A stretch of 64,000 bases of DNA from Minisyncoccota bacterium (GTDB taxonomy: Bacteria; Patescibacteriota; Minisyncoccia; Phycocordibacterales; UBA9973). The stretch is from positions 8,424 to 72,423 of the forward strand of contig JBAYFP010000003.1 in NCBI GenBank assembly GCA_041667145.1. Reading direction: 5' to 3'. This document shows, in pieces, positions 2,758 to 53,347 of this stretch. Position 1 is the first letter of the stretch. Each line of letters begins with the position of its first letter. Position numbers and translations under genes: made by a program. A model generated the notes under the pieces. That model did no database searches. It was not told the origin of the DNA and saw only the letters and a list, made by a program, of their open reading frames with translations.

Positions 2758-5046
2758 CTATTGAGCTTGAGAATTCATCATCTGTTTCGTCATAGGACCA
2801 ACAAGACCATCGGATACTAAACCATTAGCAGCTTGCCATTGTTTGATAACTGCGATCGTCTTTGGACCTAATTTGCCATCGAGAACCAAACCAAGATTTA
2901 GTTTAGCATTTAAGAATTTTTGTAATTCTATGACAGCAGCACCTTGACTTCCATTTTTCAAAACAGCCGTTCCAAAATTGTAAGTCGTAGGAGGTGTGAC
3001 GGTCGTCACATGATTCCCAACACAAGAAGCTCCCGTTGATGTACTGAAGCCAGTTGCTCTATTCCCACATCCTGGAATTTGAAGTGTCTCATTATTAACA
3101 CATGCTGCTCCAGTGGATGTATTAAACAAATTCCCTGCTGAACATCCTGGAGTTACAGCTGGTGGAACTACTGGAGTTGTATCTGGAGTTGTATCTGGAG
3201 TTGTATCTGGAGTTGTATCTGGAGTTGTAGTAACTGTAATAGGTTCATCTGAATCACTTGTAGTTTTACCAAGAGCAATGGTTATCATACCATCAGCTGC
3301 AGTAGTAAAGTATGTATTATTTGTATGTGTCGCAACTGGACTTGTAGAACCTGTTGAACCCCATGTACCTTTCTTTTGATAGGCTGTACCAAAATAAAGT
3401 TTATTCGCAGTATAAGTATTTGCAGTTGCTAAACTTAAAGTTCCTGCTGTTATGGTAAGGGTTCGACCTATAGCAAGACTAGTTGCTGTAGCAGCTTTTA
3501 TACCACTACCAGAAAGTCCTAGGTTACTATAAGTATTAGGAGTTCCAGCAAGAGCTGCATTTATTGTTTGCCCTGTCCCTCTGTAATTAACAGTGTTTCC
3601 TGCTGTTGAAACATTTAAGTTGGTAATTGCAGAAAGACCATCAATATTTAAAATACCAGTAGCACCGTTAACAAATCCAGTCCCTGCTCCAGATAAAGCT
3701 GTCGTAGCTGTAACCGTACCACTATTGTTTAATGTTCCAGCAATAGTAAGTAATGTTAATACTGTCAATGTACCAGAGTTAGAACATACTCCAGAAACAC
3801 TTACACTTGGAATGGCTAATGTTCCAGAGAGAGCACATGTCGCAGAAGAAAATGTGTGAACACCAGTAGTATTTGGAGTAGCAGTGAATGTACCAGTATT
3901 TGCTAAATTCCCTGCGAAAGTAATAGCAACAGCCACTGCTCCTTCAGTCCATGTACCAACATTTGATACATTTCCTGTAAAAGTTTTAAGACCTGTTGCG
4001 CTTAAAAAGTTTATTGTCGCTCCACTAGCAATTGTAGTGGTTCCTGTGACAGTTAAGACAGAATCAGCCGTAGCAAGAGTACCAGCAGCTACACTAAGGC
4101 CTCCAGCACCGATGTTTACAGTACTACCTGTTAAAGTTGTATTACTATTTAAAGTAACAAGACCTGTAAAAGTTTTAGTACCACTAGTGAATGATAATGT
4201 TCCTGTAGTAGCTACTGTAGTAGTACCAGTAACATTAAATGTATAAGTCGATGTGTCAAGGGTTCCAGTAGTTACAAGAAGATTTCCACCGATAGTAACA
4301 GTGCTACCAGTTGGAGTAACTGTATTTCCCGTACCAGCAATAGTAACATTGTTGTATGTAGTATAAGCACCCATTGCTTGTGCACCAGTTCCATTAAAAG
4401 TAATAGTACTACCAGTACCAGTAAATGTCCCACCAGCTGTAAAATCACCACCAACAGCAACAAGACTATTTGTAGCATTAAATACTGATGCTGCCCCAAG
4501 AGTCAAATTTGTACCAACATTGATATGACTAATACCCGTAGAAACTAATGAACTTTGAGCATTTGCAGCAAGAGTAATAGCAGCAGAAGTTGTTATCGTT
4601 CCAGTACTTATTGTAACTTGAGAAATTCTTGTTGCTGCCCCTCCTGTAATAGCTAAGTTTTGAGCCAATAATGTAGCATTACCAACAGCAAGAGTAGTTG
4701 TAGCAGAATCTCCTGTCGGAGTAGCAACGGTTACAGTTCCCGTGGCTGTAAGTGTAGTACTTGCTCCAGACATAGTAAGAGCTGTTGTTGAAACTCCATC
4801 GTTTATTGTAAGATTTACAATTGATGTTGCCACTGGAGTTGATGACAAAGTAACAAGGTGTCCTGAAGCAATAACTACAGAATCTCCAGTTTGAGGAGGA
4901 TTACCCCCTACCCAAGTAAGACCTGCATTCCAATCACCACCAGAAGCTGAAGTGACTGTTGCTGCTTCTGCTTTACCTGTAAACAAAGCTAAAGCAAAAA
5001 CAAACATTCCGACTGAAAGAAAAACATTTTTTAAATTAAACTTCAT
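2758..5046 (-). CDS. Large secreted Thr/Gly-rich (beta-helix-like) surface protein with a PDTT linker, Cys-motif repeats and a C-terminal PG_binding_1 peptidoglycan-binding domain.
   Basis: 762 aa. Signal peptide MKFNLKNVFLSVGMFVFALALFTGKAEA. Long T/G/S-rich repetitive region. Linker (PDTT)x4. Cys motifs P-G-C...TG..C repeated. The C-terminal segment GAAVIELQKFLN...DGKLGPKTIAVIKQWQAANGLVSDGLVGPMT matches the PG_binding_1 consensus. Confidence 0.7.
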   Translation of the reverse strand: MKFNLKNVFLSVGMFVFALALFTGKAEAATVTSASGGDWNAGLTWVGGNPPQTGDSVVIASGHLVTLSSTPVATSIVNLTINDGVSTTALTMSGASTTLTATGTVTVATPTGDSATTTLAVGNATLLAQNLAITGGAATRISQVTISTGTITTSAAITLAANAQSSLVSTGISHINVGTNLTLGAASVFNATNSLVAVGGDFTAGGTFTGTGSTITFNGTGAQAMGAYTTYNNVTIAGTGNTVTPTGSTVTIGGNLLVTTGTLDTSTYTFNVTGTTTVATTGTLSFTSGTKTFTGLVTLNSNTTLTGSTVNIGAGGLSVAAGTLATADSVLTVTGTTTIASGATINFLSATGLKTFTGNVSNVGTWTEGAVAVAITFAGNLANTGTFTATPNTTGVHTFSSATCALSGTLAIPSVSVSGVCSNSGTLTVLTLLTIAGTLNNSGTVTATTALSGAGTGFVNGATGILNIDGLSAITNLNVSTAGNTVNYRGTGQTINAALAGTPNTYSNLGLSGSGIKAATATSLAIGRTLTITAGTLSLATANTYTANKLYFGTAYQKKGTWGSTGSTSPVATHTNNTYFTTAADGMITIALGKTTSDSDEPITVTTTPDTTPDTTPDTTPDTTPVVPPAVTPGCSAGNLFNTSTGAACVNNETLQIPGCGNRATGFSTSTGASCVGNHVTTVTPPTTYNFGTAVLKNGSQGAAVIELQKFLNAKLNLGLVLDGKLGPKTIAVIKQWQAANGLVSDGLVGPMTKQMMNSQAQ
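3171..3230. repeat. 12 nt tandem repeat (ctggagttgtat) x5 encoding the (PDTT)n linker of the surface protein.
   Basis: Perfect tandem copies read directly from the sequence. Confidence 0.9.
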
Positions 5047-5224
5047 AATTTTTTTCCGTAAAAACGGATAATTAATAATAATTAATAATAATAATTTTTA
5101 AAGACAATAAACGTATCACCATCAAGACGACCTTCAATGGTAATTTATACATCTATTATAGAACTAAAACAATAAATATGATAACAAGTAAACTGTGGAT
5201 ATCTTTTTATATAAATAACCAAAC

Positions 5225-5254
5225 AAAAAACCACCCCCGTCGGGGTGGTTTTTT
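5225..5254 (-). terminator. Bidirectional intrinsic terminator hairpin ccaccccc-gtc-gggggtgg flanked by A and T runs. Terminates gene 5315..7516.
   Basis: aaaaaaccacccccgtcggggtggtttttt immediately downstream of the minus-strand gene end at 5315. Confidence 0.7.
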
Positions 5255-5314
5255 GAATACTTTTTAAGGCGTATTAACCATAACTAATCTTAAATCTTAG
5301 ATTCTAAACTCTAA

Positions 5315-39322: not shown

Positions 39323-39832
39323 TTATTTTCCGTTTTTAAGTCTTATTTCATTACCATCTGCAAAATTTGTAGCTATTTCATCTGCGCGTTCATTCCATTT
39401 ATTACCATTGTGTCCTTCTACATAAATCCATTTAATCTTAAATAATTTAGTAAGTTCATAAAGTTCTTCCCATAGTTCTTTGTTTAAAACAGGTTTTTTG
39501 GCAGCATTTCTCCAGTTATTTTTCTGCCAATTAAAAATCCATTCTGTAATTCCCAAAATAACGTATTTTGAATCAGAAAAAACCTCAAATACCCCCTCCT
39601 TACTCCTCCCCCTACCGTAGGGGGAGGCTGGGTGGGGGTAAATACCACTATTTTTCATATACTTGAGAGCCTCTATAGGTGCAGTGAGTTCCATTTGATT
39701 ATTTGTAGCATGTTTAGAAGCCCCACCAATTTCAAAAACTTTTTTACCGTCAATTATGATGGCTCCCCATCCGGCTGGCCCTGGGTTCCCCCTCGCCGCC
39801 CCATCTGTATAAATTATTATTTTTGATTTCAT
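39323..39832 (-). CDS. rnhA: Ribonuclease HI with an in-frame insertion.
   Basis: 169 aa. IYTDGAARGNPGPAGWGA, NQMELTA and EGHNGNKWNERADE. Extra segment GIYPHPASPYGRGRSKEG encoded by a P-family palindrome. Confidence 0.85.
   Translation of the reverse strand: MKSKIIIYTDGAARGNPGPAGWGAIIIDGKKVFEIGGASKHATNNQMELTAPIEALKYMKNSGIYPHPASPYGRGRSKEGVFEVFSDSKYVILGITEWIFNWQKNNWRNAAKKPVLNKELWEELYELTKLFKIKWIYVEGHNGNKWNERADEIATNFADGNEIRLKNGK
39592..39645. repeat. P-family nested palindrome inserted in-frame in rnhA (ccccctccttactcctccccctaccgtagggggaggctgggtgggggtaaatacc).
   Basis: About 85% identical to the ileS copy. Same orientation and same reading frame relative to the host gene. Confidence 0.8.
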
Positions 39833-39866
39833 ATTTAAATTATACCAAAATATTTAACTATAAACC

Positions 39867-39906
39867 AATGTCAAAACTCTTAGCGATAGCAGAGACTTTT
39901 GACATT
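39867..39906 (+). promoter_or_regulatory. Palindromic operator-like site aatgtcaaaactct-N10-agagacttttgacatt upstream of the wHTH/Cas2-like gene.
   Basis: 14 bp inverted repeat with 13 of 14 complementary, located 20 to 60 nt upstream of the ATG at 39927. Confidence 0.5.
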
Positions 39907-39926
39907 AATTAATATATAATAATATT

Positions 39927-40409
39927 ATGACATTAGTTTACGAAATGCTTAAAGCAATAAGTGAAACTTCCCTCTCCTATAAAGGAACCCAAGTAAACAT
40001 TTTTGGGATACCAAAATTAAAAAATAGATCTTACAAATCTATCCGTTCTATGGTGTCTTATGTGAAAAAGAATAATTTAATAGTACAAAATGATAAAGGT
40101 TGGCATCTTTCCCCCGCTGGGAAAAAGTATATGAAAAGAAAAGAAGTTTCATTGAAACAGTTTGAAAATGAGTTCACAAAAGAAGCACCTAAAAATTTAA
40201 TAGTCATGTTTGATATTTCAGAAAAACAAAAAGCGGAACGAGAATGGTTTCGCTGGCATCTAAAAAAGTTTAACTATGAAATGATTCAGAGAAGTGTCTG
40301 GGTCGGACCATCACCTCTACCGAAGGAATTTATGAACTATATAGAAAAAATAAAATTAAAAGATTCTATAAAAACCTTTAAACTTGCTAAGTCATATAAA
40401 ATTTCTTAA
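39927..40409 (+). CDS. Orphan protein with an N-terminal wHTH-like region and a C-terminal Cas2-like (VapD/Cas2 fold) domain.
   Basis: 160 aa. The C-terminal NLIVMFDISEKQKAEREWFRWHLKKFNYEMIQRSVWV aligns with the Cas2 pattern hhhhYDIS...RRK...L..YG.RVQ.SVF. The N-terminal 85 aa have a helix-turn-wing-like composition. No cas genes or CRISPR array are nearby. Confidence 0.45.
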   Translation: MTLVYEMLKAISETSLSYKGTQVNIFGIPKLKNRSYKSIRSMVSYVKKNNLIVQNDKGWHLSPAGKKYMKRKEVSLKQFENEFTKEAPKNLIVMFDISEKQKAEREWFRWHLKKFNYEMIQRSVWVGPSPLPKEFMNYIEKIKLKDSIKTFKLAKSYKIS

Positions 40410-50763: not shown

Positions 50764-50777
50764 AACTCCATTATATC

Positions 50778-50805
50778 AAAAAATCCCCCACATGGGGGAT
50801 TTTTT
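50778..50805. terminator. Bidirectional hairpin aaaaaatccccca-cat-gggggatttttt.
   Basis: Perfect 11 bp stem flanked by A and T runs, between pilB and the upstream 840 aa gene. Confidence 0.55.
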
Positions 50806-50824
50806 GATAAATAAATTTTTATTT

Positions 50825-53347
50825 TTACCACTCTAAAAGAACATACCCAGATTTACCATTAGCACCAGTTCCAGCATGAATACCACCAGAAGCACCGACA
50901 CCAAAACCACTACCATTAGTACCAGAGAAAAAAGTCAAACCACCTTTACCAACAACTTCACCTGTAGAACTTGTGCCAGAAATTCCATCTGTACCAGATT
51001 CACCGTCAATTCCATCAACACCAGAAGTGACAGAACCACCAGAACCACCAGAACCAGGAGCAGGGGGATTATTGCCACCTGTCCCCCCAGCCGTACCACC
51101 AGAACCACCTAAGGCAAATACACTCGTTGAAGAATTAGTTACATACACTCCAGCCTTCACTCCAGAATAACCATTCCTTGTAGCAAGACCACCAGAACCA
51201 CCACCACCACTATATATTTGAATCCAATCACCTTCCGTCACAGTAATTTCTCTCTTAAAAATAAATCCACCACCACCACCACCACCACCGGGACCACCGT
51301 TAAATGAACCACTACCAGCATAACCACCACCACCACCACCACCACCACCGGCGACTGCAGTAACCCAAATTTTTGTTACACCGTTGGGTACAATCCATTT
51401 AATGGGCACAGCATAATCTAAAGAACCTTTATAATACAATCTCCCACTTGGTGTCGCTGCTGTCTTTTGTATTGTATCATCAGGAAACTTAAAACCAGAA
51501 AAAGATTTAACATTACCAGTAGCGTCTATTATCATCCTAAGAGAATTAGACATGTTCCCTCCTGTATAAAATCTTATATCACCTTCAGGAGTTAAACTAC
51601 TATTATTATATGCAACAATATTTAATCCCCCTGCGCCACTTGCGTCAAGTAATGCCCCATTTGGAATAGCTATATCACCATTACTGCCAGAAACAAATCC
51701 AGAAGAAAATACATCTAACTGTACAGTAGCTTTATCTGATTCACTTATAATTTGGTTCATAACATTGGGTCCTGTATTTTTGTTTCGAACCGATAATCCA
51801 CCTGTCGTATTTATTTTACCGTTTACTTCCAACTTAGCATTTGGTGCTGTTGTTCCTGTTCCAATCCCAACATTTCCCCCATTAAACAATATATCACCTA
51901 CGTTTGGTATATTATTTTTCGCATTAACATTAACAATTCCAATAACTGTCCCATCAGAACCTGTACAATTGCCAACACTATTATTCGTACATATAGCGCC
52001 ATAAGAATAAATACTATCATTAGCGGCTATACTTTGCGCTCCTAATGCATAATAAGCATTATTTGCCCCAGTTCCACTTCCAGAAGAACCACCAGCAACA
52101 AATAATTTGCTTAGTGGAGCCGTTGTCCCAATTCCAACATTACCTGAACCTTTTATAACTAAAGCGTCACTCGTTATACCACTTGCAAAATTATTAGATG
52201 TTCCAAAATGTAATTCAGAGCCACTTGCTGTCGGCAACATTGCTATTTTTGCTATTGGTGTAGAATTTAATGAATATCTAAATGAAATAGTTGAATAATT
52301 ATTAATAGTACCTCCAGAAATTTTTAATATTCCAGAATTCACAGTATTACCTAAAAACGAGGTCTCTCCGCTCGTATCAGTAAGCTCTAATTTCGCAGTT
52401 GGATTAGTATTTCCTATCCCCACATCCCCACCAGCATTGTAATAAATATTCGTCCCATTCGTCGTCCATTGACTAGCTACTACTGCACTTGGCGTGACCC
52501 ACGTCGGCACACCAGCACCATTTGATTGCAATACCTGACCTGCAGTACCAGCCAAACCACCTGGCATAAGTGCACCAGAGAATTTAATATTTCCAACAAC
52601 ATCTAATTTTTCTGCAGGCTCTATTGTCCCAATACCAAAATTCGCACCATTATTAATATAACTTTTTATACCTACCCCTCCTAAAAAATTATTATTAGGA
52701 CCTGTAGTGTTACCTGTACCAAAAATCGCCAAGCCCAACCCGGACTTTCGGATATACATATTCTGCCCAACAGTATCAGAAAAAACTAAATTAGGAGACA
52801 AAACACTAGAAGCTGTATTGTTCTTTAAAATAAAGGCAGCTGTATAATCACTACTTATAGATTTAATAGTACCTAAAGCATCCACATTTCCATTGACATA
52901 CAATTTTGCTGTACCTGCATCATTTGCACCAATAGCCACACCGCCATTATTTGCAGTATATCCCCCAGGATAAATTGCTAAGTCTCCATTCCAAGCACCC
53001 ATATCAACAATTCCAGGAGTATCTCCTGTTCTTTCTAGTCGCAACTGTACACCCAAGTTTTCAGCCGATACATGTAATTTTGCTGCGGGGATTGTTGCTG
53101 TTACTTCACCAGTTCCAATACCAACCTTCCCGTCAAAAACCGCAGTTGTAAAAGATTTAAAACCATTGACAGCAAAAGCACCATCTTTTTGTTGGGGAAC
53201 AGTACCTGCATTTATTGGAGGATTAATATCACCTCCAGTTGGAGATGTGAGTGGAGCACTGTAACCTGCAGCAAAAATTTGTATTGATAAAGCAAACAAT
53301 GCCAACACTAGAACTGATTTTAAAATTACTTTTATTTTTTGACTCAT
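50825..53347 (-). CDS. Large secreted protein with tail-fibre-like G-x-V-G-I-G-T-x-x-P-x-A-K-L-x-V repeats and a Gly-rich C-terminal domain.
   Basis: 840 aa. Signal peptide. At least five copies of G[ND][VF]GIGT..P.AKL[EHD][VL]. C-terminal poly-Gly blocks (GGGGGGGGYAGSGSFNGGPGGGGGGGG) ending in YVLLEW. Lies immediately upstream of pilB in the same orientation. Confidence 0.5.
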   Translation of the reverse strand: MSQKIKVILKSVLVLALFALSIQIFAAGYSAPLTSPTGGDINPPINAGTVPQQKDGAFAVNGFKSFTTAVFDGKVGIGTGEVTATIPAAKLHVSAENLGVQLRLERTGDTPGIVDMGAWNGDLAIYPGGYTANNGGVAIGANDAGTAKLYVNGNVDALGTIKSISSDYTAAFILKNNTASSVLSPNLVFSDTVGQNMYIRKSGLGLAIFGTGNTTGPNNNFLGGVGIKSYINNGANFGIGTIEPAEKLDVVGNIKFSGALMPGGLAGTAGQVLQSNGAGVPTWVTPSAVVASQWTTNGTNIYYNAGGDVGIGNTNPTAKLELTDTSGETSFLGNTVNSGILKISGGTINNYSTISFRYSLNSTPIAKIAMLPTASGSELHFGTSNNFASGITSDALVIKGSGNVGIGTTAPLSKLFVAGGSSGSGTGANNAYYALGAQSIAANDSIYSYGAICTNNSVGNCTGSDGTVIGIVNVNAKNNIPNVGDILFNGGNVGIGTGTTAPNAKLEVNGKINTTGGLSVRNKNTGPNVMNQIISESDKATVQLDVFSSGFVSGSNGDIAIPNGALLDASGAGGLNIVAYNNSSLTPEGDIRFYTGGNMSNSLRMIIDATGNVKSFSGFKFPDDTIQKTAATPSGRLYYKGSLDYAVPIKWIVPNGVTKIWVTAVAGGGGGGGGGYAGSGSFNGGPGGGGGGGGFIFKREITVTEGDWIQIYSGGGGSGGLATRNGYSGVKAGVYVTNSSTSVFALGGSGGTAGGTGGNNPPAPGSGGSGGSVTSGVDGIDGESGTDGISGTSSTGEVVGKGGLTFFSGTNGSGFGVGASGGIHAGTGANGKSGYVLLEW

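Follow-up and report, generated by a model that had tools for sequence, protein, structure and literature searches.

The 64-kb stretch of DNA analysed here (hereafter the window) carries a gene for a short protein in which a Cas2-like domain follows a predicted DNA-binding domain, and a long palindrome lies just ahead of this gene. The locus raises the question of what a protein of this kind does at such a site, and whether the palindrome is its operator.

A two-domain protein related to PaaX

The gene (39927..40409, + strand), identified from the ORF list and profile matches, starts with ATG and encodes a product of 160 aa. Its parts, all on the + strand, are an N-terminal winged helix (wHTH; aa 1-62, 39927..40112), a basic linker helix plus linker (aa 63-88, GKKYMKRKEVSLKQF, 40113..40190), and a Cas2-like (PaaX_M) domain with a beta-alpha-beta-beta-alpha-beta order of elements (aa 89-153, 40191..40385). 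Over aa 92-153, the Pfam family PF20803 (PaaX central Cas2-like domain, PaaX_M) matches with 46.3 bits (cut-off 24; E 4.6e-12), whereas Pfam Cas2 reaches 27.4 bits (cut-off 23.8) on the same stretch and NCBIfam cas2 (TIGR01573) 26.9 bits (cut-off 24.5). The Cas2 models of PADLOC match the protein with E 1.9e-8. The PaaX equivalog TIGR02277 (PaaX family, COG3327) aligns collinearly, aa 38-145 with model positions 36-143 of 279, at 15.2 bits against a cut-off of 264.55. For the N-terminal domain, weak HMM matches were obtained to HTH_45, CggR_N, the S19e wHTH and, over aa 32-81, the CRISPR-associated winged-helix model WH_III-A of PADLOC. In Pfam, the protein has no match at E<=10 to PF07848, the PaaX N-terminal winged helix, and none to the PaaX_C effector domain (PF08223); the chain stops 7 aa past the Cas2-like domain. 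PHROGs gave nothing significant.

An AlphaFold2 model of moderate confidence (pLDDT 72) places the wHTH in a helix (3-13), a hairpin, a second helix (36-48) and a wing (52-61), followed by a long helix (63-78) and the beta-alpha-beta-beta-alpha-beta domain (90-152). The predicted recognition helix is aa 36-48, R40 included. Since searching the PDB by sequence, with either the protein or the family profile, returned S19e wHTH matches and neither PaaX nor Cas2, a fold comparison was needed, and in it the best structural matches of the protein are PaaX and Cas2. The top PDB sequence match of the winged helix itself (aa 17-71; 39927-40139 of the window) is the wHTH of ribosomal protein S19e (profile E 9.5e-4).

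Invariant features within the family include the Cas2 hallmarks F-D-I and Q-x-S-V-W as well as D96, R105, W107, R109, Q121, S123 and W125 of the Cas2-like domain; D96, which occupies the Cas2 catalytic position at the end of strand 1, is present in 30/30 sequences, and the distant relatives listed keep the FDIPE motif in nearly all cases. The protein is a genuine, though remote, homolog of Cas2. The initial annotation had quoted the C-terminal sequence of the ORF correctly, and its proposal of a Cas2-like pattern there is borne out by the profile searches (PF20803, Cas2, TIGR01573) and by the fold, while the winged helix it saw at the N-terminus is supported by the AlphaFold2 topology together with the weak HMM matches. 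From the three identities it offered, a PaaX-like regulator fits best, given PF20803, the collinear equivalog, the wide-set half-sites and the overlap of these with the gene's own promoter (see below).

PaaX is the phenylacetyl-CoA-responsive repressor of paa operons (E. coli W, PDB 8A39; PF07848 + PF20803 + PF08223). Unlike PaaX, which has approximately 305-315 aa, the protein described here has approximately 160, contains no PaaX_C effector domain, scores far below the equivalog cut-off, and has no paa genes nearby. On its domain make-up, the product would on balance be a truncated PaaX-type factor, consisting of a winged helix, a basic linker helix and a Cas2-like dimerisation domain, without an effector-binding domain. 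In size and layout the family also resembles the Lrp/AsnC (feast/famine) regulators, which have approximately 160 aa, combine an HTH with a beta-alpha-beta-beta-alpha-beta oligomerisation domain, and are autoregulating.

A 40-bp palindrome over the promoter of the gene

The palindromic element upstream of the gene, a putative operator by its conserved architecture in homologs, spans 40 bp (39867..39906, centre 39886/39887). Its sequence, AATGTCAAAACTCTTAGCGA|TAGCAGAGACTTTTGACATT, is a near-palindrome in which 16 of 20 positions pair. The 14-bp inverted repeat noted initially is real: the arms AATGTCAAAACTCT (39867-39880) and AGACTTTTGACATT (39893-39906) are complementary at 13 of 14 positions and separated by 12 nt. 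The 64 kb contain the pattern TGTCAAAA-N-TTTTGACA a single time, and none of 100 shuffles contains it; TGTCAA-N20-28-TTGACA likewise has one occurrence in 64 kb; an origin by chance is excluded by the conservation of the element in homologous loci. The left outer specificity box, GTCAAA (39870..39875; positions 12-17 from the centre, part of TGTCAA), is 6/6 complementary to the right one, TTTGAC (39898..39903; part of TTGACA, 39899-39904), so that the site can be written as TGTCAA-N24-TTGACA. Closer to the centre, the right inner box GCAGA (39889..39893; positions 3-7, 1-2 bits) represents the core that is conserved across the family, and the left inner box (39880-39884) is degenerate, reading TTAGC. 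The remainder of the 64-kb window contains no other copy of the palindrome, and there is none downstream of the gene. A third half-site, TGACAT at 39929, lies over the start codon (39925-39940), where ATGACATTAGTTTA pairs with TAAACCAATGTCA (88%); it lacks conservation among homologs, and chance is the probable explanation.

A TATAAT -10 box (39915..39920, + strand) ends 6 nt before the ATG of the regulator gene. On the other strand, the divergent RNase H gene rnhA (39323..39832, - strand; ORF list and Pfam), which is followed by comEC, has an extended -10 element, TGGTATAAT (39839..39847, - strand), 6 nt before its ATG at 39832. The palindrome occupies -60..-21 relative to the regulator ATG and -35..-74 relative to that of rnhA, i.e., it is located upstream of both divergent -10 boxes and is transcribed from neither promoter. 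We considered TTGACA as the -35 hexamer of the regulator gene and rejected it, as it sits at -28..-23 given the conserved TATAAT-N6-ATG geometry; in orthologs with the palindrome centred at -47, the outer box does coincide with -35.

The same promoter geometry recurs in the family. In 60/72 loci, a -10 hexamer (at least 5/6 match) ends 6-8 nt before the ATG and downstream of the palindrome, about half of these hexamers having a TG extension, and an SD-like motif precedes only 1/72 of the genes. With the -10 adjoining the ATG and SD-like motifs rare, the mRNAs of the family are probably leaderless, and those of the regulator gene and of rnhA in the window, neither of which has a Shine-Dalgarno motif, look probably leaderless as well. 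Other ORFs of related loci (L001-L080), whose starts were called crudely, have an SD-like motif in 28/580 cases and a -10-like hexamer 4-11 nt before the start in 198/580, which suggests that leaderless translation may be widespread in these Paceibacteria.

The anatomy of the site and its position lead us to infer that a PaaX-type dimer lacking an effector domain represses its own promoter through the palindrome, and we rate this mechanism as somewhat better than even. The dimer would bind the 40-bp element (39867-39906), each subunit using its recognition helix (aa 36-48, R40) to read one of the outer boxes, TGTCAA or TTGACA, which lie approximately 29-30 bp apart. For the conserved inner GCAGA boxes, which are spaced by 10 bp along one face of the DNA, the reader would be a conserved region of the protein, perhaps the basic helix 63-78. 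Since the site covers -60..-21 of what is predicted to be a leaderless promoter, binding should exclude RNA polymerase and give negative autoregulation. The proposal that the repeat belongs to an autoregulated gene is thus consistent with the overlap between the palindrome and the gene's own promoter. There is a parallel in E. coli PaaX, which represses its own promoter by steric hindrance and has TGATTC-N27-GAATCA as operator (PMC9493321): the site predicted here likewise consists of inverted hexamers approximately 24-27 bp apart that overlap the promoter of the regulator. It differs from the PaaX operator in its conserved inner core. A further contrast with PaaX lies in the multiple paralogs per genome, each with an operator class to itself.

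The site also adjoins the -35 region of the promoter that serves the divergent rnhA-comEC; rnhA is a possible second target, and rnhA-comEC may be under its control too. In the orthologous loci L004-L017, a variable gene is found between rnhA and the regulator gene, divergent from the latter and packed against rnhA; it encodes a NUDIX, DUF218, transglutaminase-like or nucleoside deoxyribosyltransferase-like protein. If the operator does control the divergent operon, these variable genes would be co-regulated. We discarded an integron-like cassette model for the variable genes beside the regulator gene, there being no palindrome between rnhA and the variable genes.

A large patescibacterial family with paralog-specific palindromes

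The protein had been called an orphan; instead, it belongs to a large family that often has 2-3 diverged paralogs in one genome. A word-indexed search yielded 1396 relatives, nearly all of approximately 160 aa, from Patescibacteria, Paceibacterota or Nomurabacteria. An exhaustive profile search at E<=1e-10 produced 960 clusters (50% identity), to which the two-domain form is common; the best 150 of these 960 clusters are all short proteins (71-337 aa). Relatives are encoded at 259 loci in species-representative genomes, and of the 68 assemblies behind the best 80 of these loci, 11 contain 2-3 paralogs. No relatives were found in viral contigs. On another contig, two paralogs are within 6 kb of each other. 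We noted two paralogs side by side and convergent in L080 (6001-7100), and two 5 kb apart in L086 (9710-16016), with gyrB and pheST between them and the second having AACGG|CCGTT as inner core.

Paralog groups hold conserved syntenic sites among housekeeping genes. The window gene belongs to the rnhA/recJ group (approximately 19 loci), and other groups are found at TsaD-class I tRNA synthetase/GDH, at UvrD-nuclease/PheST and at recO. In the window, recJ is convergent with the regulator gene, its stop codon ending 6 nt past that of the regulator; other neighbours are comEC, sodA, a HIT gene, pgk, tpi and type II secretion/pilus genes. Within 10 kb on either side of the gene, Pfam annotation revealed only housekeeping genes and no paa genes.

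The palindrome is a character of the family, being present 34-54 nt before the ATG in 72/81 homologous loci. Its general form is a core, CTGC-N4-GCAG, flanked by paralog-specific 6-bp outer boxes approximately 29 bp apart. Positions 3-7 from the centre (GCAGA) are conserved across the family, while positions 8-11 are unconstrained and paired in approximately 50% of cases. Positions 12-17 differ from locus to locus (0.2-0.9 bits), but here the two arms remain complementary at 84-99%, compared to 34-63% expected. Mismatches between arms are mostly non-wobble. The four boxes are centred at about -14.5, -5, +5 and +14.5 bp, i.e., in four successive major grooves on one DNA face. This pattern is consistent with a symmetric protein dimer and inconsistent with an uninterrupted RNA stem.

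The class of the outer boxes follows the predicted recognition helix: TG boxes occur with R40, and TA boxes with S/N40. Within a closely related subgroup, the boxes TGACAC, TGCTAC, TGGTAC, GAAACA and AATACA differ along with residues 36, 40, 41 and 44, which share one face of the predicted helix. Mutual information between protein columns and box positions proved to be dominated by phylogeny and was uninformative, and we therefore used a contrast between same-box and different-box pairs; in this contrast, which is itself confounded by phylogeny, residue 40 is the column that best discriminates box class. For the inner box there is a weak lead in residue 75, which may track it: S75T is found only in two proteins that have G at inner-box position 5, the systematic test is noisy, and L055 is a counter-example.

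In the library searched, we found no paper naming PaaX together with Cas2 or with Patescibacteria, nor one on PF20803-only proteins. On present evidence, this is an apparently undescribed, large family of minimal PaaX-type, Cas2-fold, predicted DNA-binding proteins with paralog-specific 40-bp palindromes.

Palindromes downstream of the gene and elsewhere

Two observations sit uneasily with a simple autorepressor. Such a protein needs neither a palindrome after its stop codon nor copies inside coding genes. The Cas2-like domain of the family, including the Asp, is moreover conserved far beyond the needs of a dimerisation scaffold. A second copy after the stop codon, which PaaX does not have, is nonetheless found in 70/81 loci. 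Its centre is typically 19-30 nt past the stop codon, which means that the element begins at the stop codon, and it fills the gap between convergent genes. In 65/81 loci, both copies bracket the gene (approximately 480 bp). The outer boxes of the upstream and downstream copies agree at 5.2/6 positions, compared to 2.5/6 between loci. Distant relatives (approximately 33% identity) are bracketed too, with other inner cores; the two copies of one such relative are identical 34-mers. The palindrome had been described as the gene's own operator; it is more than that, belonging to a class of elements found throughout the family, which in most cases stand on both sides of the gene and occur elsewhere as well.

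When metagenome contigs were scanned for the core motif, 120 matches were obtained, 16 of which are true palindromes, and 10-11 of these have no family gene nearby. Around family genes, dispersed copies number approximately 10 in 838 kb. One orphan copy directly precedes the start codon of the gene 3' of a T4SS coupling-protein-like gene, and others are located upstream of a Met aminopeptidase gene and after relA/spoT. Extra copies have the same box class as the paralog next to them; the copy in L026 has that of the other paralog in the same assembly. Some same-locus copies, in L048 and L058, are near-identical even at the unconstrained positions. Target-site duplications were not seen.

Several copies are in frame within genes. 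On two independent metagenome contigs (L127, about 685-725; L210, about 4045-4085), a palindrome is inside a reverse transcriptase ORF (Pfam RVT_1), at the same position directly before the GLPLGNLTSQ motif. Others are inside enolase (L208, 970-1010), an RsmI-like gene identified by reading its sequence (L176, 2172-2212), ArgRS (L059, 8157-8197, with decayed versions in L043 and L062) and TsaD (L026, 5476-5516). In TsaD, the copy forms a 12-aa loop insertion where 7/9 other orthologs have three residues, and the translated N-S-A-I-A-E-N recurs in the TsaD and RsmI-like insertions. In enolase, the RsmI-like gene, ArgRS and TsaD, all of them conserved enzymes, the 40-nt palindromes are translated in frame as insertions in surface loops. 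Such palindromes inside genes are reminiscent of Rickettsia palindromic elements, more so than of REPIN-RAYT systems.

An arrangement akin to that of REPINs and RAYTs would explain both the bracketing copies and those in frame inside genes. Under it, the 40-bp palindromes would be insertional (mobile), with the wHTH/Cas2-like protein as their cognate, vertically inherited partner, which we regard as possible and rather doubtful. It is similarly a minority view that the winged helix would recognise the palindromes and the Cas2-like, possibly nuclease, domain would help to copy, insert or maintain them; and it is a tentative suggestion, to which we would give about one chance in several, that the flanking copies would then bring about autoregulation only as a side effect. 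The locus-specific box class of the two bracketing palindromes speaks for such an arrangement, as do the bracketing of distant relatives, the 2-3 diverged paralogs per genome with a palindrome class each, the share of true palindromes away from family genes in an unbiased scan, the copies inside TsaD, ArgRS, enolase, the RsmI-like gene and the two reverse transcriptases, the near-identical same-locus copies, and the invariance of the Cas2 signature residues, D96 included. RAYTs, which are short genes flanked by REPINs, associated with them in a class-specific manner and present as single diverged copies, show the same hallmarks (PMC3337134). In the family described here, the short gene is likewise flanked by cognate palindromes, one class per paralog (the window gene having the upstream copy only), the paralogs are single-copy, diverged and at conserved chromosomal positions, and extra copies are scattered in the genome. 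However, the protein does not belong to the HUH/Y1 enzymes: profile and fold comparisons showed neither HUH and catalytic Tyr motifs nor the Y1 transposase fold, the best structural matches being PaaX and Cas2. We know of no precedent for a Cas2 fold mobilising DNA. Copy numbers also appear low, with 0 dispersed copies in the rest of the window and approximately 10 in 838 kb, and the lack of target-site duplications and of relatives in viral contigs likewise counts against mobility, which is conjecture here.

Possible hairpins at the RNA level

Could the palindromes act in RNA instead? They would then be hairpins (terminators or stabilisers) bound or cleaved by a Cas2/VapD-like RNase domain, which we consider improbable; that this would result in post-transcriptional control, or in a toxin-like activity restrained by the DNA-binding domain, seems to us an outside chance. 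In its favour, the space between convergent genes is filled by the downstream copy, which begins at the stop codon; the element has short runs of A and T on its flanks; PDB entry titles describe Cas2 and VapD as ribonucleases; the Asp at the catalytic position is conserved; and the N-terminal domain resembles the RNA-binding wHTH of S19e (E 9.5e-4). By contrast, a stem would be interrupted at positions 8-11, which are paired in only about half of the cases, arm mismatches are mostly non-wobble, and the window element, upstream of both -10 boxes, is untranscribed. An Rfam search with four loci gave no match. The genome of the window moreover possesses conventional, GC-rich bidirectional terminators of another type (about 5237 and 50791), which weakens the explanation as generic terminators. 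These two classical intrinsic terminators (about 5217-5260 and about 50770-50812) have GC-rich stems with A6/T6 flanks, AAAAAACCACCCC...GGGGTGGTTTTTT and AAAAAATCCCCCA..TGGGGGATTTTTT. A toxin-antitoxin reading is unsupported, since no antitoxin-like partner gene adjoins the regulator gene; the combination of a VapD fold and an adjoining antitoxin gene that would mark a VapD toxin or a type II toxin-antitoxin system was not found.

The Cas2 label

That the gene is a true Cas2, i.e., an orphan or degenerate CRISPR adaptation gene, is highly implausible: the Cas2 models do score just above their cut-offs and an identical protein bears the name at NCBI, but a wHTH is fused to the domain, the PaaX_M score is well above that of Cas2, approximately 1000 clusters share the same two-domain form, and neither the window nor the annotated related loci contain a cas gene or array. 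What the protein has in common with Cas2 (PF09827/TIGR01573) is the ferredoxin-like fold, with scores just above threshold, F/Y-D-I at the end of strand 1 and the Q-x-S-V-W/F motif; it differs in the fused DNA-binding domain and in having no Cas1 partner, array or CRISPR context in the family sample. In a PADLOC scan of the 54 window ORFs, the regulator protein alone matched a Cas model (Cas2). CRISPR-like repeat spacing was not detected in the window, nor was cas1 or any other cas gene, so the PADLOC, repeat-spacing and Pfam searches all agree with the initial annotation on this point. Whether homologs neighbour cas1 had been proposed as a check; among related loci with Pfam-annotated neighbours, we found no cas1, other cas gene or array, and the frequent neighbour clusters are housekeeping. 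NCBI and JGI label the identical protein P0001 and several relatives as 'CRISPR-associated endonuclease Cas2'; further relatives carry the names PaaX or hypothetical. Given the fused wHTH, the higher score of PaaX_M and the lack of CRISPR context, the Cas2 label of P0001 is a misannotation.

Among the 54 window ORFs, PADLOC also matched SspH (E 2.6e-57), mad8 (two ORFs, 4.4e-38), LmuA, RT-associated MBL, QatD and Avs1a, which are probably generic ATPase/helicase/nuclease/MBL domains in housekeeping genes. The window has a perfect 12-nt tandem repeat (CTGGAGTTGTAT x4.9; 3171-3229) and a 27-copy CCA repeat (51267-51349), each inside a long ORF.

Implications

The family presents the PaaX architecture in a minimal two-domain form, and its description puts right an annotation as Cas2 that recurs in databases. 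If the palindromes were mobile and dependent on the protein, they would constitute a new kind of domesticated element/partner system; if true, this would be the first CRISPR-independent DNA-handling role of the Cas2 fold, on palindromes the size of CRISPR repeats, and would bear on the origin of the adaptation module. Most Patescibacteria, which are ultra-small bacteria, have not been cultured, and to our knowledge next to nothing has been learned about how they regulate their genes. The family provides dozens of putative natural protein-operator pairs in which a variable recognition helix faces a variable 6-bp box, making a DNA-recognition code and the regulons in these organisms testable from sequence and by simple in vitro assays.
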